Origin: Eubacterium sp.
GTDB lineage: Bacteria > Bacillota > Clostridia > Lachnospirales > Lachnospiraceae
Direction of reading: 5' to 3'
DNA length: 64,000 bases
NCBI GenBank assembly: GCA_017477505.1
Contig: JAFUVQ010000015.1
Location: forward strand, 86,192-150,191
In this document: one piece after another, positions 6,074-48,212 of the stretch
Layout: every line of letters starts with the position of its first letter
Numbering within the stretch: position 1 is the stretch's first letter
Position numbers and translations under genes: made by a program
Notes under the pieces: model-generated
What the model saw: the letters and a program-made list of their open reading frames with translations, nothing else
What the model was told of the DNA's origin: nothing
Databases searched by the model: none

Positions 6074-6076
6074 CTG

Positions 6077-15777: not shown

Positions 15778-16893
15778 TTATGACGTGATCTCATCAATAA
15801 CCTTACGCCAGGATGATTTCCAGAGTTCAATATTAAAACCGGTTTTTACGGTATTATACCCGTTTTGGGCAAGCTTTTTTCTAAGGGCTGCATCGTTAAG
15901 AAGACTAACGATTGCAGCCTTTATTTCATTTCTGTCAGGAGAAACTATGAGCCCGTTATGACCGTCAAGTATGATGTTTGAAAGACCGCCTATATCAGTG
16001 GAAACCACTGCACAGCCTGCGGCCATGGCTTCGAGAACAGAAAGACTGGTTCCTTCGGACCACATGGTAGGAACTACGGCGATATTCTTATCCCTGTGCA
16101 TCGCCATGGCATCCATGCTCTCATAACTGGTAAGGTGTACCCGGGATGATGAGGCAAGTTTCTGTTCTATATACTGTTTGCAGGGCCCTGTTCCTGCAAT
16201 GGTGATCTCAAGCTCGGGAAATTCATCAAGCAGTTCGGATGCTATATCGGCAAAAACATCTGCACCTCTCTGTTTCATAAGTCTTCTCGCAAAAATGATA
16301 TGAGGCTTTTCGGGTTTTTCATATATCTCATCAGGAACCATAGTGAAATTCGGAATGATATGAAAACGTGTATCCGGATAAGATACGAAGGTTCTGTACC
16401 AGTTGACGAAATTGTAATCAACACATACAACAAGCTTAGTCTTATCAAGATCTTTGATAGTCTTGTAGGCTTTCAGAGACTTTGCCAGAACCCTTCTTTT
16501 ATTTCTCTCATGACTGAAGTCAAAATGTCTGGGAGTATCAAAACCTATACCGTGCTGTATAGTAAGAGAGCGTTTGAAAGAGTTGGGCTGAACATTATTT
16601 GAAGCAACAAAGAACAGAATATCCTTGTCCGGATCGGCATTCTTTGTCCCTTCCCTGAAGAGATTTTTATTTCTTTTTTCTCTGGTGCTGTAGTCAACAG
16701 CATGTCCGTAAACCTTAATACCCTGATAATCATTTACAAAATCAGTATCGGACACCTGGTGAAGTTCTGCTTCATGTCCCATCTCCTTAATGAGCGGCAG
16801 CAGATTCTTCAGATATGTCTCTACGCCGCCTACAGCAAAACCCTTGCCATCCTTAGTATAAAAATTCTCATACAAAGCCACAAACCTGCTCAT
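15778..16893 (-). CDS. Glycosyltransferase family 4, paralogue of 6077-7234
   Basis: It is collinear with the + strand GT4 over its whole length (MSRFVALYENFYTKDGKGFAVGGVETYLKNLLPLIKEMGHEAELHQ vs MSRIITVYENFYKPDGSELAIGGVETYLKNLFPIMQELGHEVELHQ; also PTMWSEGTSLSVLEAMAAGCAVVSTDIGG). By eye about half the positions are identical. Confidence 0.85.
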   Translation of the reverse strand: MSRFVALYENFYTKDGKGFAVGGVETYLKNLLPLIKEMGHEAELHQVSDTDFVNDYQGIKVYGHAVDYSTREKRNKNLFREGTKNADPDKDILFFVASNNVQPNSFKRSLTIQHGIGFDTPRHFDFSHERNKRRVLAKSLKAYKTIKDLDKTKLVVCVDYNFVNWYRTFVSYPDTRFHIIPNFTMVPDEIYEKPEKPHIIFARRLMKQRGADVFADIASELLDEFPELEITIAGTGPCKQYIEQKLASSSRVHLTSYESMDAMAMHRDKNIAVVPTMWSEGTSLSVLEAMAAGCAVVSTDIGGLSNIILDGHNGLIVSPDRNEIKAAIVSLLNDAALRKKLAQNGYNTVKTGFNIELWKSSWRKVIDEITS

Positions 16894-24829: not shown

Positions 24830-27130
24830 TTGTCAATGCCAAACGATAACGATATCAATAATAACGATAACAGTAAGAAACCCGGCGGGTTTAATTCGAC
24901 TATAATAGTTCTGATAATCTCCGTGGTGCTCTCGCTTATTTTCATTTTACAGTATAAGAACTTCATGAATTCCGGAAGTAAGGAAGTGAGTTACAGTGAA
25001 TTCCTTGAAAAACTGGATGCGGGTGAAGTTAAGGAAGTAAGCATCTATGACAACAGGATAGAATATGTTCCTGTAAGTCAGGACAATCCGGTTCAGACCG
25101 TGAAATACACCGTAGTAAGAACGGATGATATTAAGCTGGTAGACAGACTTAAGGATGCCAAGGTAAAGTTCACGGTTATAGATGAAGGCAGCACAGCATT
25201 TATCAGAACAGTCATCTTCTATATAGTCATGCTGGTTGTGATCTACTTTGTAATGTCTCTGATACTGAGAAATGTTACGAAGGGAAGCGGCATCATGGGT
25301 GTCGGGAAGTCCAATGCCAAGATGTATGTTCAGAAGAAGACAGGGGTCACCTTCAAGGATGTTGCGGGTGAAGAGGAAGCCAAGGAATCTCTCGAGGAGA
25401 TGGTGGATTTCCTTCACAATCCCGATAAGTACGTCAATATAGGTGCCAAGCTTCCGAAGGGTGCGCTTCTTGTAGGGCCTCCGGGTACAGGTAAGACACT
25501 TCTTGCGAAGGCAGTAGCGGGCGAAGCGGATGTACCTTTCTTCTCAATATCTGGTTCTGAGTTCGTTGAACTCTATGTAGGTGTCGGTGCCTCCCGTGTA
25601 AGAGACCTTTTCAAACAGGCCAATTCCATGGCGCCTTGTATAGTATTCATCGACGAGATAGATGCTATAGGAAGAAGCCGTGATACAAGACATATGGGTG
25701 GCGATTCCGAAAGAGAACAGACACTGAACCAGCTTCTTTCCGAAATGGATGGTTTCGACAGCAGTAAGGGTATCATAGTTCTTGCCGCTACCAACAGACC
25801 TGAAGTGCTTGATAAGGCGCTTCTCCGTCCGGGTCGTTTCGACAGAAGAGTTGTTGTAGAAAAGCCCGATCTGAAGGGTAGAGAAGATATACTCCGTGTT
25901 CACAGCAAGGATGTAAAGCTTGATGAAACAGTAAATCTGAAGGAACTTGCACTTGCTACCAGTGGTGCAGTAGGTGCCGATCTTGCAAATATTATAAATG
26001 AGGCAGCAATTCTCGCTGTTAAGAATAAGAGATCACTCGTTTCACAGAAAGATCTTATGGAATCGGTAGAGGTTGTCTTTGCCGGTAAAGAGAAGAAAGA
26101 CAGGCTGCTCAGTCCTGAAGAGAAGCGTATAGTTGCTTATCATGAGACCGGTCATGCGCTTCTTACCACACTTCAGAAGAATACCATGCCGGTTCAGCGT
26201 ATAACAATAATACCGAGAACCAACGGAGCTCTTGGCTATGTATGGCAGGTACCTGAAGAAGAGAAGTATCTTGAGACTCAGGTCGAGATGGAAAATGAGA
26301 TAGTCATCACCATGGGTGGTCGTGCAGCCGAAGCTATCAAGTTTGATTCGGTTACAAATGGTGCTTCAAATGATATCGAGCAGGCTACAAAACGTGCGAG
26401 AGCCATGGTCACCATGTATGGTATGTCCGAAAGATTCGGTATGGTACAGCTTGAAGATATGACAGGCGAGTACCTTGACAGAAGAACATATCTCAATTGC
26501 TCGGATGAGACTGCGGCAGATATCGATACAGAAGTACGGAATATAATAAATAAAGCTTATAAAAAAGCATTCATTTTACTTAAGAAAAATGAAAAAGTGC
26601 TGGATGCCATAGCAGAGTATCTTATTGAACATGAAACTATATCAGGTGAAGAGTTCATGAGGATCTATAGTGAAGTTTCCAGCAGATACCCTGTTGATTC
26701 AAAACTCCGTCCTTCCGAACTTCTTGAGATAGAGGAATCAGTTAAGCAGAGTAAGCCTTCAAAGACTGCAAAGGCTATCAAATCAGAGCTGAAAGCTGAA
26801 AAGTCTGAGAAAGCTTCAAAGGTCAAGAAGAAAAAGAAGAAGGAACGCTATGCTGTATATGAAAGTGATGATACTCCTGTAAGTCAGGAGCCGGTTTCAC
26901 AGCCGTATGCACAGCCAGTTGCACAACCGAATCCGGCAGGCAATGGCATGGATGATGGGCAGCAGTCATATAACAGCCCTGTCGCCGAAGAATATGCAGA
27001 GGACTTTGCCAGGATCAAAGAAGATTTTGAGAAGGCGAGCGAAGAATTGACTGATGTAAACGAAGGAACGGACGATAGTATCAGCAGTCGGAATACAGAA
27101 CAGAAGATGCCATGGGAAAAGGATGAGTAA
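24830..27130 (+). CDS. ftsH: ATP-dependent zinc metalloprotease FtsH with a long acidic/low-complexity C-terminal tail
   Basis: Two TM segments, Walker [14 protein letters not shown], Walker [33 protein letters not shown] and zinc site HETGHAL. The start is TTG 24830 (11 nt from AAGGA) or ATG 24836. Confidence 0.95.
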
Positions 27131-27176: not shown

Positions 27177-27386
27177 GTGGCAGCACTCGGTTATAAAAAA
27201 GCATATATGATCAATTGTTTTAACTGCGGAAATACCGTCAGGTATTATGCGGAGAATGTTCATCATCAGCCATGGCTTAACAAGGTTGTACAGGGACACG
27301 GTTTTACCGGTCATACAGGAGAGGTAAGGTGCCAGAACTGCGGTACCTGGCTTCCGCATTATGAATCAAATGAAATCCGCATGTAA
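27177..27386 (+). CDS. Small (69 aa) zinc-ribbon protein
   Basis: A GTG start lies 7 nt after a strong AAGGAGG. There are two CxxC pairs (CFNCG ... CQNCG) 33 residues apart. The 3' end overlaps the next gene by 26 nt. Confidence 0.5.
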   Translation: MAALGYKKAYMINCFNCGNTVRYYAENVHHQPWLNKVVQGHGFTGHTGEVRCQNCGTWLPHYESNEIRM

Positions 27387-28311
27387 GAATAAAAAGAATA
27401 AAAAGTATATAAAGGTGCCGGTCATAATATTGACCGGCTACCTGGCATTTTCAGTATTATCAACCATAGTATTCTACCAGATTTTTTTTAGCAGAAAAGT
27501 ATTACAGGCTGAGGAAAATCATATATATGAGCAATCATACAGTGAAAGCTATCCGAGAGAAGAACTGGAGTTTGAATCCTGCGGCAATATGCTGAAGGGA
27601 TATCTCTATGGCACTGAGAATGATAAAGGAATAATCATAATAGCCAATGGCATTAAGAGTACGGCTGAGTCCCAGATAAAGGACATCATATACTTTGTGG
27701 ATAAGGGCTGGCAGGTTTTTGCATATGACCAGACCGCAACCGGAGAAAGTGATGGTGACCATATCATGGGACTCATGCAGCAAAAGTACGATGTCATTGC
27801 GGCTGCGGAGTTTATTCACGGCAGGAACGATTCAGAGAAACTGCCTATCTTTGTTTACGGTTTCAGCATGGGCGGTTACGGAGTGGCCGCATCCTGCGAT
27901 GACCTTGACTTTGTGGAAGGATTCGCCAGCCTCGCAGGCTTTAATGAACCGACCAGGGTCATGATGTATACCGCTGACGATTATGTCGGTTTTCTGGCAT
28001 GGACACAATATCCGTTTATCTATACCATGAATTCCGTGAGAGGCGGTTCAGATGGAAATGAAAAGGCATCCGATGCCATATCGGTATCAAATGATGCAGA
28101 TATACTTATAATGATCATAGAGAATGATCCGGCTGTTCCCTATGAATCAAGTATTTATGCCATGCAGGATGATATAGATGATCCCAATGCAGTATTTGAA
28201 AAGCTGGATTCAAGCTTTAGTGGGAAACACGGGGCTGAATATATCACAAGAGACTCTATCGTTGCAGAAAGAGTTAGTGATTATTTTGAAAGCCTGCTTG
28301 AAAATGAATGA
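27361..28311 (+). CDS. Membrane-anchored alpha/beta hydrolase (esterase/lipase-like)
   Basis: N-terminal TM VPVIILTGYLAFSVLSTIVFYQIFF and nucleophile elbow GFSMGGYG. An alternative start is ATG 27370. Confidence 0.7.
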   Translation: MNQMKSACKNKKNKKYIKVPVIILTGYLAFSVLSTIVFYQIFFSRKVLQAEENHIYEQSYSESYPREELEFESCGNMLKGYLYGTENDKGIIIIANGIKSTAESQIKDIIYFVDKGWQVFAYDQTATGESDGDHIMGLMQQKYDVIAAAEFIHGRNDSEKLPIFVYGFSMGGYGVAASCDDLDFVEGFASLAGFNEPTRVMMYTADDYVGFLAWTQYPFIYTMNSVRGGSDGNEKASDAISVSNDADILIMIIENDPAVPYESSIYAMQDDIDDPNAVFEKLDSSFSGKHGAEYITRDSIVAERVSDYFESLLENE

Positions 28312-30209
28312 ATGACAGGAGTTGTATAGTTCAGATGAAACTCGACAATATAGCCGGATGTAAGTCGATTTCTGAATTTGTTTCGAAAAAAACCGAAATT
28401 CTCAGAAATACAGACCATAGCTTTAATGCAATATTCGAGCTGATGTTTTCGGAAAAAACAAATATATTTTTTGAAGAATCCGAGGGTTTTGATATAAAGC
28501 GCACAACCTACGGAGAAGCTTATGACAGGACTCTGATTCTGGCAAAGGCCATTAAAGATACTCTTAAGGATGAGAGTCCGGATTCTGTTGTGGGGCTTGA
28601 TATGGAGAACGGGCCACTCTGGGTGGAAGGCTTCTGGGCCATAATCCTGGCGGGCTTCAGACCTCTTCTTATAAATGACAGACTTCCCGAGAAAACTCTG
28701 GAGGAAGTCAGAAAAGATCTTAAGGTTGTATATACCTTATGTGAGGATTCCCTTCCGATTATGGGAGATGAAAAGCTTGATCCCAAGACTGCGGATACAG
28801 GTTCAGAATTCTTCGTAATGAGTTCCGGGACTTCGGAGCACGTTAAGATATGTGCATACCGCCCTGAGGCTATAGTTAATCAGATATATGACAGCTACAG
28901 CATCATTAAAGAATGTAAAGAAATCAGGAAGCATTATAACGGGTATATAAAACAGCTCACCCTGCTTCCTTTTTATCATGTCTTCGGGCTTTTTGCAGTG
29001 TATTTCTGGTTCGGGTTCTTCTCGCGAACATTTGTAAAATTAAATGATATGCAGCCACAGACCATTCTCGATACTATAAGAAGGCATGAGGTGACACACG
29101 TCTTTGCAGTACCTATGTTCTGGGACAAAGTATACAGTGCTGCCATGAGAGAAATCAGAAAGCGCGGCAAGGAAACCTACGAGAAATTTCAGAAGGGCAG
29201 GAAGATAGGAAGATTCATTCCTAAGATTGCATTTAAAGAGATAAGAGAAAATCTTTTCGGTGAATCCATATGCTTTATGATATCAGGAGGAAGCTTCATA
29301 TCAGAAGAAGTGCTGTCATTCTTTAATACAATTGGATACAGACTGGCGAACGGATATGGAATGAGTGAGATAGGAATAACTTCAGTGGAGACCAGTTCAA
29401 AGTATAATATACTCTGCTCGGGTTCTGTGGGAAGACCTTTTCATTCCATTCAGTATGACATAGATGAGGCAGGTGAGCTTGTGGTTCATTCCTCTTCCAT
29501 GGCAAGTTATATATATTCGGATTCCGGAGTCGTAACGCCGGAAGGTGTTTATGCAACCAGGGATATAGCTGAGGAAAGAAACGGAAGATATTATCTTGGT
29601 GGAAGGAGTGATGACATCATCATTACTTCCAGTGGAGAGAATATAAATCCATATATTATAGAGAAGAATGCCGATATAGAAGGCATTGATACACTATGTC
29701 TGGTTAAAGGACATGAAAAGGCTGCGGTGATCGCTCATGTGAATTCCTTCAGAAGAGGCGCCGATGCTATACGGGAGGATATAAAAAGCTTCCTTGATGA
29801 TGCAAAGATCAAGGCTGAAACAGAGGCTATAATCCTTACCGAACAGAGACTGATAGAGGAAAATGAATTTAAGGTGAACCGCAGGAAGATTCAGAAGAAG
29901 TATCTTTCCGGAGAATTATATTCATACGATGATGAGTCCCGCGCCAAAACCGAAAAGCGCGGAAGAAGTGCCTACTATGAAAAAGTTAACGCAGTATTCT
30001 GCAAGGCACTGGATAAGGAACCGGGAGAAGTCGGTGACTACGAAGACTTTTTCATCGACGGAGGCGGAGACAGCCTCGGGTATCTCTCAATGATGGCTGA
30101 ACTTGAGAATACCTATGAGATAGACTTCCCATCCATGGGAGAAAAGAGTCTCAGTACTATAGGAGATATAGTGGACTACATTGAACAATCTGCTGATAAA
30201 CATAGTTAA
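28308..30209 (+). CDS. ANL-superfamily adenylating enzyme fused to a C-terminal carrier (PP-binding) domain
   Basis: ATGA start/stop overlap with the upstream gene. AMP-binding core motifs: a degenerate A3 MSSGTSEHVKI, A5 NGYGMSEIG, and A7/A8 YATRDIAEERNGRYYLGGRSDDIIITSSGENINP. The carrier-domain motif is FFIDGGGDSLGYLSMMAELE, with a candidate phosphopantetheine Ser in GDSL. Confidence 0.75.
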   Translation: MNDRSCIVQMKLDNIAGCKSISEFVSKKTEILRNTDHSFNAIFELMFSEKTNIFFEESEGFDIKRTTYGEAYDRTLILAKAIKDTLKDESPDSVVGLDMENGPLWVEGFWAIILAGFRPLLINDRLPEKTLEEVRKDLKVVYTLCEDSLPIMGDEKLDPKTADTGSEFFVMSSGTSEHVKICAYRPEAIVNQIYDSYSIIKECKEIRKHYNGYIKQLTLLPFYHVFGLFAVYFWFGFFSRTFVKLNDMQPQTILDTIRRHEVTHVFAVPMFWDKVYSAAMREIRKRGKETYEKFQKGRKIGRFIPKIAFKEIRENLFGESICFMISGGSFISEEVLSFFNTIGYRLANGYGMSEIGITSVETSSKYNILCSGSVGRPFHSIQYDIDEAGELVVHSSSMASYIYSDSGVVTPEGVYATRDIAEERNGRYYLGGRSDDIIITSSGENINPYIIEKNADIEGIDTLCLVKGHEKAAVIAHVNSFRRGADAIREDIKSFLDDAKIKAETEAIILTEQRLIEENEFKVNRRKIQKKYLSGELYSYDDESRAKTEKRGRSAYYEKVNAVFCKALDKEPGEVGDYEDFFIDGGGDSLGYLSMMAELENTYEIDFPSMGEKSLSTIGDIVDYIEQSADKHS

Positions 30210-30828
30210 CTGGTTTACAAAGATAACTGCATGGCTGCCTCAGAAACTGGTTTTCAGAACAAAGATTTATTATGAAAATGGAGATCGGAGTCTGAGACGC
30301 CCCAAGGGACCTGTTATTATAATATCAAATCATACTGCGGTTTATGATTATGCCGCATTTCTTTTCGTATTCATGACAAGAACTCTCAGAGTTCCTATGG
30401 CAGAGGTGCTGTTCAGTAAGCAGCCTCTGGGTACATTTTTAAAATGCATGGGCGGTATAAGAGTTGACAGGGCAGACCATGATTTTTCATTTATCAATAA
30501 GCTTGAAAGAGTACTTAAGAAGGGGGGCGCTGTTCTGATATTTCCGGAGAGCAGACTCCCAAAGGAAGGCGAGGAAAGACCGCTTCCGTTTACACCGAGT
30601 GCGGCATATCTTGCCCTTTTGTCAGGCGCAGAAATAATTCCCGTATATACAAACGGCCGTTACTTCACGAAAGACAGGGCCAGGGTCATGATAGGAGCAG
30701 GTATTAAGGCGGCTGACTTTGTAAAAGACGGAATGGACAGGAAGGAAACTATAGATGCCCTGAACCGCGGAATGCGCGAGAGGGTTATAGAGTTAGGTAA
30801 GAAACTTGATGAAGTATCTGTTTTATGA
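30181..30828 (+). CDS. PlsC-family (lysophospholipid/1-acylglycerol-3-phosphate type) acyltransferase
   Basis: HX4D motif NHTAVYD, FLKCMGGIRVDR and FPESRLP. The TTG start from the ORF track overlaps the upstream gene by 29 nt, so the exact start is uncertain. Confidence 0.75.
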   Translation: MNNLLINIVNWFTKITAWLPQKLVFRTKIYYENGDRSLRRPKGPVIIISNHTAVYDYAAFLFVFMTRTLRVPMAEVLFSKQPLGTFLKCMGGIRVDRADHDFSFINKLERVLKKGGAVLIFPESRLPKEGEERPLPFTPSAAYLALLSGAEIIPVYTNGRYFTKDRARVMIGAGIKAADFVKDGMDRKETIDALNRGMRERVIELGKKLDEVSVL

Positions 30829-31438
30829 TTTTGTAAAGATAACGGCGGCACTGCCGGGGCTTATAGCCTTCAGACCGAAGATTTTATATGAAAATGAAGA
30901 GGCGAAAAAGAAGATAAAGGGTGGAGCGCTTATAATAGCGAATCATATCACTTTAATCGACCCCATACATGTCATGACGGCAGTATGGTACAGAAGACAC
31001 AGATTCATCTGTACCAAGGATTTCTTCGAGCATAAGATAGCGAAGCATTTTTTCAAAGGCTTCAGATGCATACCCATTGATAAAGAGAATATGGGCATGG
31101 ATTCTTTCAATGCCATAGTGAAATGTCTAAAGGACGGAGAACTGGTATCCATGTTCCCGGAAGGGAAGGTGTCGAAGGACAGCAGTGTGGTTGATACTTT
31201 CAAAAGCGGAATGATACTTATGGCTGTCCGGGGCAGGACGCCAATAATTCCGATCTATATAAAAAAGAGAAAAAGTATCCTGGAAAGACAGGTTACCGTA
31301 ATCGGTGAGCCAGTTCATGTGGAAACCATGTTTAAGGGCATGCCATCCATGAAGGATATAGAAGAAGTAAGCAACCAGTTACATAATAAAGAGGAGGAGT
31401 TAAAGAATTATGCCAATAGGAACAAGAGAGGTGTTTAA
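30809..31438 (+). CDS. PlsC-family acyltransferase (second copy)
   Basis: HX4D motif NHITLID, GFRCIPIDK and FPEGKVS. ATG 30809 overlaps the upstream gene by 20 nt. Confidence 0.75.
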   Translation: MKYLFYDFVKITAALPGLIAFRPKILYENEEAKKKIKGGALIIANHITLIDPIHVMTAVWYRRHRFICTKDFFEHKIAKHFFKGFRCIPIDKENMGMDSFNAIVKCLKDGELVSMFPEGKVSKDSSVVDTFKSGMILMAVRGRTPIIPIYIKKRKSILERQVTVIGEPVHVETMFKGMPSMKDIEEVSNQLHNKEEELKNYANRNKRGV

Positions 31439-32924
31439 GACCTATACGGACGAGGAAACCTTTGCAAAGATTAAGGAGTACGACAGCCTTTCAGAGATGT
31501 GGAAGGAAGCTGTAGCTTCATATGGGGCAGACCATATCATGATCAAAGATAACGGATCTGAATATACATATGCGGATGTAGAAAAGGAAGCGGCGGTTTT
31601 CAGGGCAGTGCTTGCAGGAAAGGGACTTTCAAAGGGGGACAGAGTAGGCATTATAGCTGTTAATTCCTACGAGGCTGTAAGAGCATTCATAGCTGTAGTA
31701 ACATCGGGTATGACTGCAGTAATGCTTCCGCCTCATCTTGATGAGAGAACCATCTTCGGATGCTGCATGAAGTTTTCACTGAAGGCAGTTGTATTTGATG
31801 ATTCGGCAAAAGACAGAGTAGGACTTGCAGGCAGCAGGTTCGCAGTAATAAATGTAAATGAAACCACAGACGGGTCTGTTGAAGCTGTTTCTGTAGCTGC
31901 TGAGGATGAGGCGGTAATAATGTTCACCGGCGGAACTACCGGAAGCAGCAAGGGCGCACTTCTTACCAACAGGGCACTCATGCAGGGTGTCACAAACGGC
32001 TGTTACGGTTATAAGGACGTATTCAATCAGAGATATATACTCCTGCTTCCTCTTTTCCATGTGTTCGGGCTTATCCGTAATACACTTACACCTATCATGA
32101 CAGGAAGTACATTATGGATATGCAGAAATACTAAGGATATGTTCAAGGATATCGCTATATTCAGACCGACTGTTATGGTTGCAGTACCTGCCATGGTTGA
32201 GATGGCTTACGGACTCTCGAAGCAGTTCGGAAAGCAGATGCTGGGTCCTGATATGAAATATATCATTTGTGGTGCTGCAAATGTTCCGCCATATCTTATC
32301 GAAGAATACTATAAGGACGGAATACTTGTACTTGCCGGTTATGGTCTTACAGAGACGGCTAACCTTGTTTCGGGAAATCCTGACAGCGTTAAGGCACCCG
32401 ATTCAGTTGGAAAACTCTTCCCGAACCAGGAAGTTAAGCTCGTGGACGGAGAAATCTGGATCAAAGGCAGCAATATCATGAGTGGTTACATAGGCGAGGA
32501 GGAGAATCCTTTTGAAGATGGATGGTTCAGAACCGGTGATTTGGGACGTTTCGATGAAGAAGGATACCTTTATATAACAGGAAGAATCAAAGAAATCATC
32601 GTTCTTCCTACAGGTGAAAATGTTTCGCCTGCTGAGCTTGAAGCAAAGTTTAATACAGTGAAGCTTATCCAGGACAGTCAGGTCTTCGAAGCAATAACAG
32701 AAGATGGAAGGCATATACTTGCCCTTGAAGTTGTTCCGAGAGCATCAGAGACAGCAAAGCTTCCAAAAGAAGAGGTTGCAGAGACAATACTGAAAGAGCT
32801 GAGAGCAGTAAATGAAACTATTCCATCAGCCCAGAGAGTTACAAAGATGACCATAAGAGATAAGGATTTCGACAGAACTCCAAGTATGAAGATCGTGAGG
32901 TATAAAAATGCAGTACAGTCGTAA
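31410..32924 (+). CDS. Fatty-acyl-AMP / acyl-CoA / acyl-ACP ligase (canonical ANL enzyme)
   Basis: FTGGTTGSSKGALLTN (A3), AGYGLTETA (A5), FRTGDLGRFDEEGYLYITGRIKEIIVLPTGENVSP (A7/A8) and a C-terminal PSMKIVR (A10 Lys). An RBS (GAGGAGGAG) lies upstream. Confidence 0.85.
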   Translation: MPIGTREVFKTYTDEETFAKIKEYDSLSEMWKEAVASYGADHIMIKDNGSEYTYADVEKEAAVFRAVLAGKGLSKGDRVGIIAVNSYEAVRAFIAVVTSGMTAVMLPPHLDERTIFGCCMKFSLKAVVFDDSAKDRVGLAGSRFAVINVNETTDGSVEAVSVAAEDEAVIMFTGGTTGSSKGALLTNRALMQGVTNGCYGYKDVFNQRYILLLPLFHVFGLIRNTLTPIMTGSTLWICRNTKDMFKDIAIFRPTVMVAVPAMVEMAYGLSKQFGKQMLGPDMKYIICGAANVPPYLIEEYYKDGILVLAGYGLTETANLVSGNPDSVKAPDSVGKLFPNQEVKLVDGEIWIKGSNIMSGYIGEEENPFEDGWFRTGDLGRFDEEGYLYITGRIKEIIVLPTGENVSPAELEAKFNTVKLIQDSQVFEAITEDGRHILALEVVPRASETAKLPKEEVAETILKELRAVNETIPSAQRVTKMTIRDKDFDRTPSMKIVRYKNAVQS

Positions 32925-33159
32925 TGAAATACTTACTAAGTTAAGTGAAATGATGAAGACAAACGGTATTACCGATAAGGACCTCATGTCTCTTCCCGAT
33001 GACATCAGGCTGGATGAAGATCTGGGTATGACCTCAATCAATATGTTATATATGGTTATCTATATTGAAGAGGAATTCGGAGTGGATTTCGGCGCCAAGA
33101 GCATAAGGGATTTCAAGACTCTTGGAGATGTCGTTAAATTTATAAGTGAAGAAGCTTAA
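32908..33159 (+). CDS. Stand-alone acyl/peptidyl carrier protein (83 aa)
   Basis: It has ACP size and helix pattern. The candidate phosphopantetheine site is EDLGMTSINMLYMVIYIEEEFGV. It overlaps the ligase by 17 nt. Confidence 0.65.
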   Translation: MQYSRNEILTKLSEMMKTNGITDKDLMSLPDDIRLDEDLGMTSINMLYMVIYIEEEFGVDFGAKSIRDFKTLGDVVKFISEEA

Positions 33160-33160
33160 T

Positions 33161-34078
33161 ATGAAGATTTTTCTTATAATCCTGGCGGCATTTCTGGTTC
33201 TTCAGGTGATCATATCAGTTGTCGCCACATTTATAACATTTAATATTGTTTTTTTAAGAAGAGACGAAAAAGGGCAGAAAAAGGATCCGGCTTCAAATGC
33301 TTACCTGAAACGTTATGAAAAGGAGCTTAAGGACAGTATCAAGTTCCTTCTTGCCAAAAAGGCTGAGAAGGTTCATATAACATCTAAGGATGGATTAAAA
33401 CTTGCTGCTGACTTTTATGATGCAGGTTCAGACAGGACTGCACTTTTCTTCCATGGTTACACATCTCTTCCTATGGCTAATTTTGCCATAATAGGCAGGA
33501 AGTTCTATGAAAGAGGATACAATATCCTGCTTATCACTCACAGAGCCCATGGCGAGAGTGAAGGAGAGTATTGCACTCTGGGACTTCTGGAACAGGAAGA
33601 TGTGATCTCATGGACGGAGTGGTGCCGTGACAGGGGACTTGGACAGCTTGTGCTGTACGGAATATCCATGGGCTGTGCATCAGTTTCCTATGCATCGGAC
33701 AGGCTGGATAAAGAACTGGTAAGAGCTCTTATACTGGACTGCGGTTTTTCGTCACCATATGAGCAGATATCAAATGATGGAAGAAAAATGCATGTTCCAT
33801 ATCAGTTGATAATGCCGATACTGACACAGCTTGCCAGAAAAAGGCTGGGTATAAATCTGAAGCAGAAGGTGAGTGATTCACTTTCCCGATGCAGTATTCC
33901 AGCCCTGTTTATACATGGAGTATGTGACTCCACGGTTGATATTAAATATGGGATAGAAAACTATGAAAGCTGCAGCTCTGAAAAGAAAATGATAAAGGTT
34001 GAAGGAGCTGAACATACAATGGCATTCCTGGACGGTGGAGACAAGGTATGTGAAGAGGTATTTGATTTTATAGCTTGA
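33161..34078 (+). CDS. Membrane-anchored alpha/beta hydrolase (Ser nucleophile), paralogue of 38221-39168
   Basis: N-terminal TM IFLIILAAFLVLQVIISVVATFI. Also FFHGYTS, HRAHGESEG, the elbow GISMGCAS and a C-terminal GAEH. The start is ATG 33161 or in-frame GTG 33146. Confidence 0.75.
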   Translation: MKIFLIILAAFLVLQVIISVVATFITFNIVFLRRDEKGQKKDPASNAYLKRYEKELKDSIKFLLAKKAEKVHITSKDGLKLAADFYDAGSDRTALFFHGYTSLPMANFAIIGRKFYERGYNILLITHRAHGESEGEYCTLGLLEQEDVISWTEWCRDRGLGQLVLYGISMGCASVSYASDRLDKELVRALILDCGFSSPYEQISNDGRKMHVPYQLIMPILTQLARKRLGINLKQKVSDSLSRCSIPALFIHGVCDSTVDIKYGIENYESCSSEKKMIKVEGAEHTMAFLDGGDKVCEEVFDFIA

Positions 34079-34150
34079 ACCGGAGCATAAGGCTTCGTTA
34101 AGGATATGAAGACATATTATAATAAACTATAAATAATCTGGAGGAGAAAG

Positions 34151-35086
34151 ATGGATAAGTATGTAATCATCACTGATACTACCAGTGATCTGAGAAAAGA
34201 ATATCAGGAGAAATATGATATCAAGGTCATCAATGGACATATCATTTGTCCTGACAAAACAGAAATACCTGCATTTCTTGAATGGAAAGACTGGGACAGA
34301 GACCAGTTCTATACGGATCTCAAGAAGAATCCTGATGGATGGACTACAGCTCCGCCAAATGTTCAGGAATATATCATGGCATATGAGCCATATATCAAAG
34401 AAGGTTACGGAATTCTTGCTATTACCATTTCAGGCGGTATAAGTGGTTCCTATGGTTTCATGACAGATGCAAGAAAACAGCTTCTTAAGGATTATCCTGA
34501 TGCGAAGATCGAATGTATTGATTCCAGAAAGTTCGGACCATGTATCGGACTCCTCTGCGTATATGCAGCTATGAACAGAGATAAGGGCATGAATCTCAAA
34601 GAGAATGCAGAAGAGATAGAGAAGCTCAAGATGAGCATGCATCAGGCAGGATGGCTGGATGACCTTTCATTTGTCGCTAAGAAGGGAAGAATCTCACATC
34701 CTAAGGCATTCTTCGGCACACTTGCAGGTGTTAAGCCTCTCGGAGATTTCGATGATAATGGTCTTACAACCGTTATCGGTAAGGTTAAGGGAGCAGCAAC
34801 AGCATATAAGGTACTTCTTGACTATATGGAGAAAACCATCAAGAATCCTGAAGACCAGATTATTTTCATAGCTCAGACCAGCCGTGAGAAGCAGGCTCTT
34901 CAGTTTAAGGAAATGATTGTTGAGAGATTCCATCCGAAGGAAATATATGTAAATGATGTATTCCCTGTTTGTGGAATAAATATAGGTCCCGGCCTTATGG
35001 CAGCTTATTACGTAGGTAAGCCTCTTTCAAGAGAACTTACATATGAGAAGCAGCTTATGGACAGTATAATCAACGGAGAAAAATAA
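34151..35086 (+). CDS. DegV-family fatty-acid-binding protein (FakB-type)
   Basis: The opening YVIITDTTSDL is typical of DegV. ITISGGISGSY is also present. Length is 311 aa. Confidence 0.8.
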   Translation: MDKYVIITDTTSDLRKEYQEKYDIKVINGHIICPDKTEIPAFLEWKDWDRDQFYTDLKKNPDGWTTAPPNVQEYIMAYEPYIKEGYGILAITISGGISGSYGFMTDARKQLLKDYPDAKIECIDSRKFGPCIGLLCVYAAMNRDKGMNLKENAEEIEKLKMSMHQAGWLDDLSFVAKKGRISHPKAFFGTLAGVKPLGDFDDNGLTTVIGKVKGAATAYKVLLDYMEKTIKNPEDQIIFIAQTSREKQALQFKEMIVERFHPKEIYVNDVFPVCGINIGPGLMAAYYVGKPLSRELTYEKQLMDSIINGEK

Positions 35087-36418
35087 ATGAAAAAGCTTAC
35101 GAATGCACCTCAGAAGATATTCTATGCATCTGGTGCCATGGGAGTAAATCTTCTCAATACCATGATGGGCTCATATATCTGCAGTGCCCTTCTTGTGGGC
35201 GGTTTCGGTGAGGAGGCCATACCTTTTCAGACCTATGTGGGAAAGGACCTTATCATACCGGCAGTATGGGCTGTATTTGCATTTCTCGCAAAGGTTGTAG
35301 ACGGTATCATTGACATTCCTATGGCTTCATTTGCAGATAATTTTAAATCCAGATTCGGCAGAAGGCGTCCGGTCATATTGATAGGTTTTATCATAATGGT
35401 ACTGGCTTATCTCGGTATGCTCTTTATCCCGAATCCAAACGGCGCCACAATGCTTAATACTGTTTATTTCGGAATTGTGCTCTGTATATTCTATTCATTT
35501 TATACACTTACCATGGTCACATATTATTCGACCTATACAGAGATTGTCGACACCGATATTGACAGGGCATTTCTGTCAAATGTAAAAGCTGTATGTGATA
35601 TCTTTTATTTCATCATCGGTTATGTAATAGTCAGGATGTTCCTTAATTCCATGAACATCAGACTGGTAGCGCTTATAGTGCTTCCGCTCAGCCTTCTGAT
35701 GATGATTCCTGTAGCACTTATCAAAGAGGAATCAAATCTCGGTGATGATTCTAAGGTGAAGAGCGTAAGTCTTATACAGTCACTTAAATGTACATTTCAG
35801 AATAAGCCTTTCCTTCGATGGATTGTTGCCTATGCATTCATGAATTTCGGAGTACAGCTTTTCCTCGGAGGAATCAATGAGTATTTCTCGAAGGTGGGAA
35901 TGAACATGATGATCGTTATGATGTCATGCTTCGCACCGGTTCCGTTTACTCTTATTCTGTATAATGTGATAATGAAGAAGAAGGGCTTCGGCTTTTCATT
36001 TATATATGCACTTGCTGTATATACCGTCGGAATGATATGCATGTTTGTTGTGGGAACCATGCCGGCGGGCACCGGTAAACTGGTAGCATCCATAGTAGCC
36101 GGAGTTATCTCTTCATTTGCCATAGGAGCGCTTTTTGCGGTTGCATATCAGCTGCCGTCACAGCTTGCGGCTGAGGAGGAGACAAGAACGGGAGTTGCAA
36201 ACTCGGCTATGTACTTTGCGGTACAGGGACTTTTCTCAGGTGTAGCAACGGGTATTGCAACGGGAATAGTGCTTACGGCACTTAAGGGATCTGAATCAGC
36301 CAATTCAGATGCTATCAGGTACATTACACTTATATCGGCAGCCGGAACAGTTGTTGCAGGCATACTTACACTTATGCTGCCTGACGTAATCAAAAAGATA
36401 GGAAAACAGGATAAATGA
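35087..36418 (+). CDS. GPH/MFS_2-family (MelB-like) major facilitator transporter
   Basis: About 12 TM segments. The GPH signature is KVVDGIIDIPMASFADNFKSRFGRRRP. The start codon directly abuts the degV stop (TAAATG). Confidence 0.75.
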   Translation: MKKLTNAPQKIFYASGAMGVNLLNTMMGSYICSALLVGGFGEEAIPFQTYVGKDLIIPAVWAVFAFLAKVVDGIIDIPMASFADNFKSRFGRRRPVILIGFIIMVLAYLGMLFIPNPNGATMLNTVYFGIVLCIFYSFYTLTMVTYYSTYTEIVDTDIDRAFLSNVKAVCDIFYFIIGYVIVRMFLNSMNIRLVALIVLPLSLLMMIPVALIKEESNLGDDSKVKSVSLIQSLKCTFQNKPFLRWIVAYAFMNFGVQLFLGGINEYFSKVGMNMMIVMMSCFAPVPFTLILYNVIMKKKGFGFSFIYALAVYTVGMICMFVVGTMPAGTGKLVASIVAGVISSFAIGALFAVAYQLPSQLAAEEETRTGVANSAMYFAVQGLFSGVATGIATGIVLTALKGSESANSDAIRYITLISAAGTVVAGILTLMLPDVIKKIGKQDK

Positions 36419-38088
36419 TAGTCACCAAAGTTAATGCTATAATGTTTGACAAGATGTTGAAGAATGGTCTTCAGAATCTTCTTGCACATGAAACAGAGAT
36501 AAATAAATTAAATGTATTTCCGGTTGCAGACGGAGATACCGGTTCTAATATGGTTGTAACCATTAAGAACGGGCTTAAACTGACAAAGAAGACCAATCTT
36601 CTTTCCGATTATCTGTCCCGTCTTTCCGAGGGTATGATGTTCGGAGCAAGAGGTAATTCCGGAGTTATTCTCTCCCAGATAATGAGGGGAATCTATCTTG
36701 CACTTTCCAATGTGGGAGCGGCAGGGACTAAGGAATTAAAAAAGGCTTTTATAAACGGTTACAAGACCGCTTATGATGCAGTCAGCAATCCTGTAGAAGG
36801 AACCATGCTGACAGTTGCAAGAGAAGGAATCGAGAAAATATCTGAGCATATAAAAAGAGAGACTACAGTAAACCAACTGCTCTTCATGTATATATCTCAG
36901 ATGAAGAATACTCTTAAGAAGACACCGGAGATGCTGCCGGTTCTGAAAAAGGCAGGAGTTATAGATAGTGGGGCATATGGTTATATCGTGATTGTAGAAG
37001 GCATGCTTAAGTATCTTGAAGGTGAGATTATAAATGAATCTGAGAAAGAGGTACATGCTGTTAAGACGGCGGATCTTCCGAGCAGTGAGCTTTTCAATGC
37101 TGACAGCAGCTTTGATACAGGCTATTGCATGGAGTTCGTACTTCAGCTTCTTAACGGGTCAGGTTACAGGGCTGATTTTAATGAAGAGGCTTTCAAGGCT
37201 GAACTGGGTAAGCACGGAAATTCCATAGTACTTGCCGGAAGCGGTACAAGGTACAAGGTTCATATTCACACCAAAAAACCTTCACCTGTTATAGAACTTG
37301 CACAGCGCTACGGTGAGTTTATATCATTTAAGCTTGAGAATATGCAGGTACAGTTCAATGAGAATCTTCACTCAAATGGTGCTGTTCCTGGGAAGAAGAC
37401 TGAAGAAAAAAGGGAAGAGATTCCATTTGGAATAGTTGCAATCCTGAACGGGGACGGGCCTGAAAGGCTATATAAAGAGCTTGGATGTACGGCTATCGTA
37501 AAGGGCGATTCCAAGAATAATGCTTCGGTGAAGAGCATACTTGACGGGATTAATGCGGTAAATGCGAAGAGGACAGCAATCATTCTTAACAGTAAGAATA
37601 ATGTGATAGCTGCAGAGCAGGCACTTACCATGACTGATAAAAAGGATTCCATCGCACTTATTAAAACAGAGAACATAGTTGAAGGCTACTTTGCCCTTGC
37701 GCTCGATATAGGAGATGAGACGGATTATGATCTGAGACTCCGTGAGATGAGCGGATATGGTGAAGGACTTAATACAGTAAAAACTACTGAGGCTACCAAG
37801 GAGTATACGGAAGGAGAACTCAGTTGTAAGGAAGGCGACTGCATTACATTTATCGGTGATAAGATGTCTGCAGTTGCGGGAGACTCTGTTACAGCCTTTA
37901 TCGAAGGAATTGCAGCTGTACCTGACATTGACTTCAAAGAGAACATGATTCTTTTCAAGAACAATATGGTAACTTCTGATGAAGAAAGCAGACTCATGGG
38001 AATTCTTGAAGAGAAGTACCCTGACATAGAAGTAAAGATGGTAGACGGCAATAACAGCATCTATATGTGGCAGGCCGGGCTGGTATAG
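36415..38088 (+). CDS. Dak2-domain protein of the YloV/FakA (fatty acid kinase) type
   Basis: LNVFPVADGDTGSNM is the Dak2 phosphate-binding motif. ARGNSGVILSQ is also present. The 557-aa length is typical of YloV/FakA. ATGA overlap with the MFS gene. Confidence 0.75.
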   Translation: MIVTKVNAIMFDKMLKNGLQNLLAHETEINKLNVFPVADGDTGSNMVVTIKNGLKLTKKTNLLSDYLSRLSEGMMFGARGNSGVILSQIMRGIYLALSNVGAAGTKELKKAFINGYKTAYDAVSNPVEGTMLTVAREGIEKISEHIKRETTVNQLLFMYISQMKNTLKKTPEMLPVLKKAGVIDSGAYGYIVIVEGMLKYLEGEIINESEKEVHAVKTADLPSSELFNADSSFDTGYCMEFVLQLLNGSGYRADFNEEAFKAELGKHGNSIVLAGSGTRYKVHIHTKKPSPVIELAQRYGEFISFKLENMQVQFNENLHSNGAVPGKKTEEKREEIPFGIVAILNGDGPERLYKELGCTAIVKGDSKNNASVKSILDGINAVNAKRTAIILNSKNNVIAAEQALTMTDKKDSIALIKTENIVEGYFALALDIGDETDYDLRLREMSGYGEGLNTVKTTEATKEYTEGELSCKEGDCITFIGDKMSAVAGDSVTAFIEGIAAVPDIDFKENMILFKNNMVTSDEESRLMGILEEKYPDIEVKMVDGNNSIYMWQAGLV

Positions 38089-38092
38089 GCAT

Positions 38093-38192
38093 GCGAATGC
38101 ATCAGGCATTCGTGTGCCGGTGCGTGCCCTGCTCCGAAGGAGCAGTCCTGCGAAGCAGGATTCACGAACGGCCAACCGAAGCCGTTCGTGAA
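38093..38192 (+). other. GC-rich array of four consecutive stem-loops, with no U-tract
   Basis: H1 is CGAATGC-ATCAG-GCATTCG (38094-38112). H2 is CTGCTCC-GAA-GGAGCAG (38129-38145). H3 is TCCTGC-GAA-GCAGGA (38146-38160). H4 is TTCACGAACGGC-CAACCGAA-GCCGTTCGTGAA (38161-38192, 12-bp perfect stem). Confidence 0.8.
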
Positions 38193-38220
38193 GGCTTAGG
38201 TAATATATAAAGGAAGTGAA

Positions 38221-39168
38221 ATGAAGAAATTAAGTACAAAGACCAAGGTCATAATAGCAGTAACTGTCATACTGAATCTTCTGATGTTCCCGGTTGTTGC
38301 AACATGCATTATTTACGGTATTCTTCTGACCAGGTCTGACAAGAAGAAGTGGAACCGTACATGCAGCATGCCTGAGGATGAAGAATATAAGCGCATGCAT
38401 GATATCGGCATGGACTGGGAGAAGAAACATAGAGGCGTGAAGACTCCTGTGATGGTGAGAAGCGGGATGTACAGGCTTTTCGGTGAGTATTTTGATTTCG
38501 GAAATGATAAAGCAGTCATTATAATCGCCGGACGTATGGAGGCATGCATCTACTCCTATTTCTTTGCGGAACCATACAGAAGAGCAGGTTATAATGTCCT
38601 CGTTATAGATAACAGGGCACATGGCCTTTCAGACGGACATATTGTTTCCCTGGGATATAAAGAATATAAAGATATAATAGCCTGGAGCAGGATGCTGCAT
38701 AAAAAATTCGGTGTAAAGGAAGTTGTTCTTCACGGTATCTGTATCGGAGCATCAACGGCACTCTTTACACTTGTTTCTCCAAAATGTCCGTCATATGTAA
38801 AAGCCATGGTGGCAGAGGGCATGTATATCAATTTCTATGAATCCTTCAAGAATCATATGATAGAGAAGAAAAAGCCGCTGTTTCCGATATGCCAGATAAT
38901 GGCAGCGCTCATCTTCGTGATGTCGGGTGCGGATATAGTTAATGACGGACCGCTTAAGCGTATGCCGCTTCTCAGGAAACCTATACTATTCCTTCACAGT
39001 AAAGAAGATATATATTCGGTTCCTGAATTTGTGCCCGATCTCTATGACAGCTGCAAGGCACCAAAGAAGCTGGTATGGTTTGACAGCGGAGCTCATTCGA
39101 GAATCAGAATCAATCATATGGATAAGTATGATGATACTATCATTGAATTCCTGAATGAATTAAAATAA
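38221..39168 (+). CDS. Membrane-anchored alpha/beta hydrolase with Cys at the nucleophile elbow
   Basis: N-terminal TM VIIAVTVILNLLMFPVVATCIIYGILL. NRAHGLSDG is present. The elbow reads HGICIGAST (TGT 38740-38742), where the paralogue 33161-34078 has GISMG. The C-terminus has SGAHS. Confidence 0.75.
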   Translation: MKKLSTKTKVIIAVTVILNLLMFPVVATCIIYGILLTRSDKKKWNRTCSMPEDEEYKRMHDIGMDWEKKHRGVKTPVMVRSGMYRLFGEYFDFGNDKAVIIIAGRMEACIYSYFFAEPYRRAGYNVLVIDNRAHGLSDGHIVSLGYKEYKDIIAWSRMLHKKFGVKEVVLHGICIGASTALFTLVSPKCPSYVKAMVAEGMYINFYESFKNHMIEKKKPLFPICQIMAALIFVMSGADIVNDGPLKRMPLLRKPILFLHSKEDIYSVPEFVPDLYDSCKAPKKLVWFDSGAHSRIRINHMDKYDDTIIEFLNELK

Positions 39169-39191
39169 AAAGATTACAAGGGGGTACAGAG

Positions 39192-39866
39192 ATGAAGATA
39201 GGTATTATTATAGCAATTGAAAGAGAATTGAAGTCATTTCTTGAGAGCGGCCATGATATTACAGAGGAGTTCGTGGCTGGTAAGACTGTATATCGTACGG
39301 AAATGTATGGTCATGATGTCTATGCGGTACGATCCGGTTATGGGGAGATAGATGCTGCGGCATCTACTCAGCTTCTTATACTTCACACGGGATGCGATAT
39401 TGTTATCAATTTCGGTGTGGCAGGAGCGATAGTACCCGGACTTAAGGTTGATGACCTCTTCCTCGTAGAAAAGGTATGTCACTATGATTATGATGTATCT
39501 CCGATAGACCCCGTAAAGAAGCATCAGTATGAAGAATATCCGGATGAATTCATACGGCTTGATGCAGGACTTCAGAATATGGTTATCGAGAAGATGCCTT
39601 CTGTACGTACTGTTACAGTGGCCAGCGGAGACCGTTTCGTAGAGCTTGTTGAGGATAAGCAGCAGCTGGCTTCTCTTGGCTGTCAGATCTGTGATATGGA
39701 GATAGCAGCTATTGCACGAATAAGCCTGCAGAACAAAGTCAAGTGTCTTTCCATCAAATGTATAAGTGATACTTACGAGGGTGATGGTGGAGATTTCAAT
39801 ACAAATGTAATAAAGAGCGCTGTAAAGGCGTTCGCAATGCTGAGGGAAGTTCTGCAGCTTCTGTAG
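39192..39866 (+). CDS. MTA/SAH nucleosidase family (PNP_UDP_1) protein
   Basis: It is collinear with Pfs/MtnN motifs: MKIGIIIAIERE, SGYGEIDAA, VINFGVAGA, ASGDRF, CDMEIAAIA and KCISD. Confidence 0.7.
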   Translation: MKIGIIIAIERELKSFLESGHDITEEFVAGKTVYRTEMYGHDVYAVRSGYGEIDAAASTQLLILHTGCDIVINFGVAGAIVPGLKVDDLFLVEKVCHYDYDVSPIDPVKKHQYEEYPDEFIRLDAGLQNMVIEKMPSVRTVTVASGDRFVELVEDKQQLASLGCQICDMEIAAIARISLQNKVKCLSIKCISDTYEGDGGDFNTNVIKSAVKAFAMLREVLQLL

Positions 39867-39887: not shown

Positions 39888-39920
39888 AGCCGCTCCCGAT
39901 TGTCATGGGGCGGCTTTTTT
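39888..39920 (+). terminator. Rho-independent terminator
   Basis: AGCCGCTCC ... GGGGCGGCT stem followed by T6. This is the first canonical terminator downstream of ftsH. Confidence 0.8.
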
Positions 39921-42868: not shown

Positions 42869-42942
42869 TGCGTCCTAGAGGATTCGAACCCCCGACCTTC
42901 TGGTCCGTAGCCAGACGCTCTATCCAGCTGAGCTAAGAACGC
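42869..42942 (-). tRNA. tRNA-Arg (anticodon ACG)
   Basis: The reverse complement folds as GCGTTCT/TA/GCTC-AGCTGGATA-GAGC/G/TCTGG-CTACGGA-CCAGA/AGGTC/GGGGG-TTCGAAT-CCTCT/AGGACGC/A. It is 74 nt and CCA is not encoded. Confidence 0.9.
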
Positions 42943-48132: not shown

Positions 48133-48139
48133 TCAGAAG

Positions 48140-48212
48140 CTGGGCTACTAGGATTCGAACCTAGAAAATGCCGGAGTCAGAGTCCGGTGCCTTACCATTT
48201 GGCGATAGCCCA
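48140..48212 (-). tRNA. tRNA-Gln (anticodon CTG)
   Basis: In the reverse complement, acceptor TGGGCTA pairs with TAGCCCA, the anticodon arm is CCGGA-CTCTGAC-TCCGG, the T arm is CTAGG-TTCGAAT-CCTAG, and the discriminator is G. It is 73 nt. Confidence 0.85.

Follow-up and report, generated by a model that had tools for sequence, protein, structure and literature searches.

Clostridia of the gut and rumen are exposed to bile, to plant lipids of the diet, to unsaturated fatty acids that are toxic and to phospholipases of the host, and their uptake and reuse of lipids are poorly known. The LplT/Aas system of Escherichia coli (b2835/b2836) unites, within a single operon, a major facilitator superfamily (MFS) transporter with an HX4D acyltransferase of the PlsC type and an ANL acyl-carrier ligase, and fused forms are represented by NCBIfam PRK08633 and PRK06814. 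LplT/Aas has been identified only in Gram-negatives, whereas lysolipid uptake and acylation activity has been observed in Gram-positives without identified genes (PMC11416262). The FakA/FakB pair of Staphylococcus and Streptococcus belongs to fatty-acid salvage, and within the gut Clostridia the fatty-acid-amide clusters (oaa of Coprococcus eutactus, ebf/ecf of Enterocloster) pair a stand-alone adenylation enzyme and a small carrier for fatty acids with a hydrolase, a 4'-phosphopantetheinyl transferase (PPTase), a free-standing condensation domain and a lipid-transfer-like protein (PMC13310621, PMC10871352). Here we describe 13 consecutive plus-strand open reading frames (ORFs) at positions 27177-39866 of a 64,000-nt stretch of Eubacterium sp. 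contig JAFUVQ010000015.1 (the whole stretch is referred to as the window, and all positions are window coordinates). The cluster is a conserved operon of Clostridia, built from known families in a new combination and with several new subtypes. An initial annotation of the stretch had not recognized this union of genes as a described system, and no published description of the set was found in the literature. With slightly less than even confidence, we read the cluster as a route for the capture of acyl chains or lysolipids and their re-esterification into membrane glycerolipids independently of fatty acid synthesis by the type II route (FASII), which would make it analogous to LplT/Aas plus Fak.

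Evidence that these genes form a system comes from their conservation. The adenylation-carrier didomain protein of the cluster (A-T) has >2000 database homologues (~640 aa, ~45% identity), and a scan with this family, taking one genome per species, recovered at least 470 species-representative genomes. The best 80 of these at least 470 loci were compared by tblastn of all window proteins against them, with gene presence counted in the 61 loci that had enough downstream sequence. The 80 loci are named Oscillospiraceae, Ruminococcus, Lachnospiraceae, Christensenellaceae, Butyrivibrio, Acutalibacteraceae and others, and the related loci originate from rumen, hindgut and human gut assemblies. The cluster also occurs in complete genomes, among them Ruminococcus sp. 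JL13D9 (NZ_CP162392.1) and JE7B6 (NZ_CP162391.1) and Ruminococcaceae bacterium P7. The recurrent order in the 61 loci is A-T, PlsC, PlsC, AMP ligase, acyl carrier protein (ACP), hydrolase, DegV, MFS, FakA, hydrolase, and contigs bearing two A-T homologues have the same gene order as the window. Both acyltransferases (PlsC1 and PlsC2) are present in 61/61 loci, DegV, FakA and the alpha/beta-fold enzymes ABH2 and ABH3 in 57 each, the ACP in 56, the AMP ligase in at most 55 and the MFS transporter in 46, while the third alpha/beta-fold enzyme, ABH1, lies within cluster range in 24, usually at the far end. Median intergenic gaps in the related loci range from -29 to +18 nt, their flanks are unrelated with no recurrent families beyond cluster accessories, and protein identity to the window is 41-46% for A-T, 43-63% for DegV, 38-51% for FakA and 39-66% for the MFS. 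The initial annotation would have given up its proposal had the homologues not been syntenic in any related genome; the comparison decided firmly the other way, the set being syntenic across Clostridia with DegV and FakA together in 57 of the 61 loci. A minimal variant in five loci (L077, L079, L080, L081 and L083) lacks DegV, FakA, ABH2 and ABH3 and runs A-T, a 630-aa MFS_2 protein (sharing 30% identity with the window MFS and extended by ~190 aa at the C terminus), PlsC, PlsC, AMP ligase, ACP, LRAT-PPTase and ABH1. Because of this Fak-less variant, the core of the system is defined as the carrier ligase(s), two acyltransferases, an LRAT-PPTase, one hydrolase and the MFS, and very commonly a Fak-like module with two further alpha/beta enzymes is added to it.

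The initial annotation had likened the locus to an expanded, split version of LplT/Aas joined to a Fak module, and this idea holds in part. In its favor are the similarity of PlsC2 to PRK08633, the 30% identity of the AMP ligase to Aas, and an MFS of the GPH type with MFSD2A-like fold; against it, the MFS is unlike LplT. The cluster shares with LplT/Aas the combination of MFS transporter, HX4D acyltransferase and ANL ligase in one operon, but it splits these functions over separate proteins with two acyltransferases and two ligases, uses dedicated carriers (with their own PPTase in relatives) instead of the housekeeping ACP, adds two to three alpha/beta enzymes together with a pair of Fak-like proteins, and resides in a Gram-positive host. 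With a transporter of the MFS_2/GPH type that has no detectable similarity to LplT, and with a differing architecture, it does not belong to the LplT/Aas system. The Clostridial fatty-acid-amide clusters are likewise excluded as its identity because the condensation domain is missing, both from the window ORFs and from the extra genes of related loci; PlsC, DegV, FakA and MFS genes are present here instead.

Within the window, the cluster lies between ftsH (24830-27130) and an MsbA-like ABC exporter, flanks which the initial annotation had named correctly, although its count of twelve ORFs fell one short of the ORF list. Its account of the junctions was reproduced from the ORF list and a terminator scan: successive overlaps of 26, 4, 29, 20, 29 and 17 nt, a 1-nt gap between the ACP and ABH2 ahead of ATG 33161, direct abutment of DegV and the MFS (0 nt, 35086/35087), a 4-nt overlap between the MFS and FakA (36415-36418), and real gaps of only 72, 132 and 23 nt. 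The PlsC1/PlsC2 overlap is 20 nt with ATG 30809, the start picked by the gene caller on a same-species contig (L084), and 23 nt with TTG 30806. The unit ends at 39894-39920 (plus strand) with a hairpin and T run that resemble an intrinsic terminator, and this is the first terminator-like site between genes, the other plus-strand hits of the scan being intragenic. Profile searches bore out the family assignments, with every named family above its Pfam gathering score (Hydrolase_4/Abhydrolase_1 three times, AMP-binding with PP-binding, Acyltransferase twice, AMP-binding with AMP-binding_C_3, PP-binding, DegV, MFS_2, Dak2 with FakA-like_M and FakA-like_C, and PNP_UDP_1); the exception is the first ORF, a 69-aa zinc-ribbon-like protein without a significant family match.

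Two adjacent genes encode the acyltransferases. PlsC1 (30181-30828; PF01553, 8e-17) retains the HX4D motif, with H51 and D56 invariant in 78/78 homologues, together with R97 (78/78) and R125 (76/78) in motifs II and III. Lysophosphatidate acyltransferases (LPAATs) typically carry arginines in these two motifs, and on the strength of these residues and of the HX4D motif of PF01553, PlsC1 is classed as LPAAT-like. PlsC2 (30806-31438, likely from ATG 30809; PF01553, 8e-23) has an equally invariant HX4D motif (H47/D52, 73/73) and a divergent motif III, FPEG[H/R/Q/K]. Among NCBIfam models it is matched best by PRK08633, an acyl-[ACP]--phospholipid O-acyltransferase, over the acyltransferase region of that model (90 bits), and the PlsC profiles match the N-terminal domain of Aas weakly but significantly (22.9 and 41.6 bits).

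The transporter (35087-36418; MFS_2, 1.2e-26) is the most conserved protein of the cluster, with 60-67% identity to its 120 best homologues, and is a cation symporter of the MFS_2/GPH type by family (Pfam MFS_2, 93.7 bits against a gathering score of 27), while its score of 53 bits for TIGR00792 gph is below the threshold of 231. In a profile alignment with E. coli MelB, its invariant D72, D76 and K69 correspond to D55, D59 and R52 of the cation site, and an invariant Met143 to the sugar-binding D124. A single-sequence search of the PDB gave no match, and profile searches of the PDB returned SUC1 and, marginally, MFSD2A (E = 0.015 with one alignment, nothing with another). An AF2 model built from an alignment of database homologues (pLDDT 82) had as its top three Foldseek matches MFSD2A lysolipid (lysophosphatidylcholine) symporters, followed by MelB, at TM-scores of ~0.7. 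The protein shares with MFSD2A and MelB the MFS_2 family, the predicted fold and the cation-site Asp pair, at an identity of only 13-15%.

Two enzymes of the cluster would activate carboxylic acids for carrier loading. The A-T didomain (28308-30209; AMP-binding 4.6e-30, PP-binding 7e-7) consists of an adenylation domain fused to a phosphopantetheine carrier domain with the motif GGDSL, whose Ser589 is invariant (80/80). Its AF2 model (pLDDT 83) best matches MenE and two A-PCP didomains, those of McyG and of carboxylic acid reductase (CAR), and its nearest relatives in the PDB, by sequence and fold together, are MenE, 4-chlorobenzoate ligase, McyG and CAR. With these neighbors, A-T is a carboxylic-acid activator for which a fatty-acid substrate is plausible but not indicated. 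The lipid-ligase role given to it in the initial annotation found no support, and a first impression from motifs, that A-T is a fatty-acid-specific (ACSL-like) ligase, was not supported by the sequence and fold searches of the PDB. The stand-alone ANL acyl-AMP ligase (31410-32924, 504 aa; AMP-binding 4.5e-61) has as its best PDB match the fatty-acyl-CoA synthetase FadD13 of Mycobacterium tuberculosis (3.6e-34), and it is 30% identical to the synthetase domain of E. coli Aas (residues 360-625, E = 6e-30). It is followed by the 83-aa ACP (32908-33159; PP-binding 2.6e-6), in which Ser43 is invariant in 68/68 homologues.

Other known systems were also compared, of which Dlt-type D-alanylation and aryl-polyene or xanthomonadin-like clusters were rejected. 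Dlt-type D-alanylation finds no counterpart here, as DltA is absent among the 25 best NCBIfam and 31 best PDB matches of the AMP ligase and ranks only 30th for the A-T model, and the cluster contains no MBOAT or DltD by Pfam. An aryl-polyene or xanthomonadin-like cluster would call for ketosynthase, reductase or dehydratase genes, of which none is present. The recurring exosortase-A-associated set (TIGR03098, TIGR03101) also has an ANL ligase, a small carrier and two alpha/beta hydrolases, and the AMP ligase and ABH2 match its models weakly (1.8e-32 and 8e-8), far below the cut-offs; however, it differs in host phylum and surrounding genes and has no PlsC, Fak or MFS.

Most relatives carry a further gene between the ACP and ABH2, which encodes an LRAT-family (NlpC/P60 Cys-His) domain, usually fused to a PPTase (for example L030:14965-15999, L077:16974-17990, L081:15222-16217 and about 50 other loci). 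The LRAT domain occurs in 53/61 loci and the PPTase in at least 39/61, with some loci having an LRAT-only (~140 aa) or PPTase-only gene in place of the fusion. LRAT proteins are phospholipase A/acyltransferases. The fusion is absent from the window, and no description of it was found in the literature. Without it, the carriers of the window must be primed by an enzyme encoded elsewhere.

The Fak-like pair is divergent relative to its characterized counterpart. FakA (36415-38088) has the Dak2, middle and C-terminal Pfam domains, passes TIGR03599 YloV (464 bits, cut-off 396), aligns end to end with Streptococcus suis FakA 7w7h (8e-72), and keeps the DGDTG motif for ATP/Mg and the Zn-site residues C238 and H283/H285 invariant. 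The DegV/FakB-like lipid-binding protein (34151-35086; DegV 1e-52) passes the NCBIfam DegV domain model, and its best PDB match is Staphylococcus aureus MW1315 (4x9x, 2.9e-23), which we take to be FakB2. T66, S98 and R180, the equivalents of FakB fatty-acid-binding residues, are also invariant. The three-domain FakA, its ATP/Mg and Zn residues and the DegV Thr/Ser/Arg thus agree with FakA/FakB at the family level, but neither the equivalog level nor two functional residue sets are reached, and the genes of the pair lie within an accessory operon and not in a housekeeping setting. The NCBIfam equivalog models score far below their cut-offs (FakA 310 against 975 bits for FakA_VfrB; DegV 120 against 350 for FakB1). 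As to the residues, the position of the carboxylate-binding His of FakB is occupied by N277 in 60/60 sequences, so that the FakB network of Thr-Ser-His plus Arg is incomplete, and Lys aligns with FakB2 R202 in 55/60. The roles of the FakB Thr, Ser, His and Arg residues and of R202 have been described, as have E538 and E554 of FakA, which are extremely conserved and required for FakB binding (PMC10848957). The cluster FakA has no C-terminal Glu (SsFakA E554) and varies at the E538 position, and the E538/E554-R202 interface between FakA and FakB is not conserved in the pair.

Judged by these residues, the cluster DegV forms a subtype of its own, in which Asn replaces the His that binds the carboxylate, and the pair looks like a specialized, possibly orthogonal, set of paralogues. 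The departures at carboxylate and interface residues mean that the ligand may not be a plain fatty acid. One related locus carries a second, canonical His-type DegV (L022:3339-4193, IIGAHTGPD) 6 kb upstream of the cluster, making the Asn-type DegV an extra paralogue there; no second fakA lies within the 64-kb window. The Fak module of the initial annotation is accordingly upheld for the two families and revised for their kind, as a divergent subtype takes the place of a plain housekeeping Fak.

The three alpha/beta-fold enzymes are not equivalent. ABH1 (27361-28311; Hydrolase_4, 8e-11), which has an N-terminal transmembrane anchor, and ABH2 (33146-34078, likely from ATG 33161; Hydrolase_4 and Abhydrolase_1), also transmembrane-anchored, have Ser nucleophiles: GFSMG in ABH1, with GxSxG invariant in 27/27, and GISMG in ABH2, with Ser174 in 62/63. 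The transmembrane-anchored ABH3 (38221-39168) has a Cys nucleophile instead (GICIG; Cys in 49/51 orthologues) within a C174-D263-H292 triad, of which D263 and H292 are invariant. Its best PDB profile match is 5g59 ("esterase", 1.7e-19), which we take to be the Pyrococcus furiosus esterase, followed by monoacylglycerol lipases. Cys-nucleophile alpha/beta enzymes favor acyl transfer over hydrolysis, and ABH3 is a candidate transacylase or thioesterase. The topology was assessed from positive-inside counts over the families, as the window's own sequences are ambiguous. The counts favor an N-in orientation that puts the catalytic domain of ABH1 outside (18 vs 5), and for ABH2 (42 vs 10) and ABH3 (44 vs 3) they favor C-in, so the catalytic domains of ABH2 and ABH3 are probably cytoplasmic. 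The initial annotation saw three lipase/esterase-like hydrolases that release lipids. The alpha/beta families are indeed present three times, but the third enzyme has Cys instead of Ser, and with ABH2 and ABH3 most likely facing the cytoplasm, a set of three releasing lipases is unlikely.

How these parts might work together in capture and re-esterification can be sketched as follows, with substrates, direction of flux and cooperation between the modules being those that we infer from the protein families. The outward-facing, anchored ABH1 would act on exogenous or damaged lipid to release acyl chains or lysolipids, and the MFS_2 cation symporter would import or flip a lysolipid-like amphiphile. 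Free acids could then be turned into acyl-phosphate by the Asn-type DegV with FakA, while the A-T didomain would make an acyl-S-carrier and the AMP ligase with the 83-aa ACP would make acyl-S-ACP. At the inner face of the membrane, both PlsC enzymes would pass carrier-bound acyl groups to acceptors of the lyso- or glycerol-phosphate type, and the inward-facing ABH2 and ABH3, with the LRAT-PPTase in most relatives, may prime, edit or transacylate. Exposure to plant and host lipids is plausible, given a cellulolytic host and the rumen, hindgut and human-gut origin of the related loci. If fatty-acid synthesis were bypassed in this way, the cluster would bear on the response of these bacteria to FASII inhibitors and to dietary fat.

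Several observations weigh against such a salvage route. A-T has its nearest relatives among aryl or generic carboxylic-acid ligases and secondary-metabolism A-PCP didomains, not among fatty-acid ligases, and a cluster-encoded PPTase together with an NRPS-like (non-ribosomal peptide synthetase-like) carrier motif are hallmarks of dedicated biosynthesis. The transporter is not an LplT homologue by BLASTP and profile comparison with E. coli LplT, no LplT model appears among its NCBIfam matches, and MFSD2A precedes MelB only marginally in Foldseek (1.4e-10 vs 3e-9). It is missing in 15/61 loci, mainly in a group named Ruminococcus, which makes transport dispensable. Two of the three hydrolases probably face inward, FakA and DegV differ from characterized Fak at the carboxylate contacts and at the FakA-FakB interface, and the need for three activation routes is unexplained.

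Some of these observations lend substance to the main alternative view, which we rate as possible yet less probable, in which the locus is a biosynthetic cluster for a dedicated acylated lipid or lipid-like metabolite. A-T would load a particular, possibly non-fatty, acid, the AMP ligase/ACP and Fak pairs would supply acyl donors, the PlsC enzymes would build a diacylated product, the Cys and Ser enzymes would release or transfer it, and the MFS would move a precursor or the product. This would account for the A-PCP and aryl-acid neighbors of A-T, for the source annotation of A-T homologues as "non-ribosomal peptide synthetase" and for the dedicated PPTase in at least 39 of the 61 loci, and an acyl-transferring Cys enzyme would fit as well as a divergent Asn-type DegV that may bind something other than a plain fatty acid. 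The behavior of the cluster is also that of an accessory module, with variable accessory genes and unrelated genomic contexts. However, no condensation, ketosynthase, reductase or other tailoring domain occurs in the 80 loci, the MFS, being of the GPH type and having its cation site intact, is by family an importer, FakA/DegV are not otherwise known outside fatty-acid salvage, and PlsC1 retains phosphate-binding arginines of the kind typical of lysophosphatidate acyltransferases.

A bolder form of the capture and re-esterification reading, which we regard as rather unlikely, is that the cluster constitutes the missing Gram-positive machinery for lysolipid uptake and re-acylation, built on principles unlike those of LplT/Aas: an MFSD2A-like symporter, private carriers with their own PPTase, a Cys transacylase and an orthogonal FakA/DegV pair. 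The invariant His-to-Asn exchange in DegV hints that the ligand is no plain fatty acid but, for instance, a lysolipid or another head group that contains an acyl chain. As an operon of ten to thirteen genes in at least 470 species, the cluster is a concrete candidate for the Gram-positive activity, and it brings with it new subtypes (the Asn-type DegV, a FakA without the canonical FakB-binding glutamates, the Cys alpha/beta enzyme and the LRAT-PPTase fusion).

Capture and re-esterification might also serve detoxification and repair, a specialized version which we consider improbable. Membrane-damaging unsaturated fatty acids and lysolipids, arising from host or competitor phospholipases, bile or plant lipids, would be rapidly re-esterified by what would be a Gram-positive counterpart of LplT/Aas, for which protection of E. 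coli against attack by phospholipase has been reported (PMC11416262). The evidence for capture and re-esterification applies equally here, the loci come from rumen, hindgut and human gut, and ABH2, ABH3, PlsC1 and PlsC2 are all predicted at the cytoplasmic face, the side at which flipped lysolipids would arrive, but the cluster contains no stress regulator and the MFS is missing in a quarter of the loci. Finally, a chance juxtaposition of housekeeping lipid genes (fakA, fakB, plsC and acyl-CoA ligases) without functional unity is highly improbable and effectively refuted: each family does occur separately in many genomes, and the nucleosidase and zinc-ribbon ORF are unrelated passengers, yet the ten-gene order recurs in 57/61 species-level loci at 40-65% identity with overlapping or near-touching genes and unrelated flanks, DegV/FakA are a cluster-specific subtype, and L022 has a second, canonical DegV.

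The two end genes of the window cluster were included in the system by the initial annotation and, with no occurrence in the 61 loci, have been removed from it. The zinc-ribbon-like ORF (27177-27386, plus strand) has two CxxC pairs, matches zinc-ribbon Pfam models below threshold only, and has no homologue among the 80 related loci; a perfect AAGGAGG Shine-Dalgarno sequence lies 7 nt 5' of its GTG, and the gene caller did not call it in L084. It is lineage-specific, and its membership in the system is doubtful. The ABH1 ATG, which this ORF overlaps by 26 nt, has no obvious Shine-Dalgarno sequence, and the two features suggest translational coupling. In 21 of the related loci (L004:20050-20583, L019:20878-21357 and 19 others) a small zinc-ribbon protein is encoded directly 3' of ABH3 on the same strand; besides its N-terminal zinc ribbon it has a linker rich in Pro and Gln and two transmembrane helices that are conserved. 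Homology of the window ORF to this family is unsupported, as only the CxxC motifs match. At the other end, the Pfs-like nucleosidase (39192-39866, plus strand; PNP_UDP_1, PF01048, 2e-33) scores 122 against a cut-off of 169 for MTA/SAH nucleosidase; it is probably co-transcribed with the cluster, yet it is not a conserved member. FtsH is likewise absent from all 61 loci and the ABC exporter is present in one. The longest ORF of the MsbA-like exporter, from TTG 39900, overlaps the upstream terminator, and the gene caller places its start ~33 nt later (~39933, 646 aa), directly after GGAGG.

The 132-nt gap between FakA and ABH3 is a structured spacer (38089-38220, plus strand) with four hairpins, inverted repeats and no U tract, a minimum free energy of -65.4 kcal/mol (z = -6.4) and a perfect 12-bp stem at 38161-38192. 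It occurs once in the window, and the corresponding gap in relatives has a median of 10 nt. It may act in RNA processing or stability or as a partial terminator, or it may be a small insertion. Rfam detected no riboswitch or leader in the window, its sole matches being two tRNAs.

The surroundings of the cluster give some indication of the host. A GH9 cellulase with CBM4_9 (1439-3820) and a GH5 cellulase of 1740 aa that has Ig-like and SLH domains (7254-12476) are encoded upstream, together with an SLH protein (164-1315), and these cellulases and SLH domains mark the host as a cell-surface-anchored fiber degrader. Two SpoIIE-domain (PP2C phosphatase) proteins are encoded at 13879-15369 and 43099-45063. 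From the GH9 and GH5-SLH cellulases and the SpoIIE-domain proteins, the host is a cellulolytic, probably spore-forming Firmicute. Surface polysaccharide genes lie among the cellulases (3862-7234, and 15778-16893 on the minus strand), comprising Acyl_transf_3, a Stealth-family protein and two GT1-family glycosyltransferases. The window is otherwise almost entirely plus-strand, apart from the minus-strand tRNA-Arg(ACG) at 42869-42942 and tRNA-Gln(CTG) at 48139-48212.

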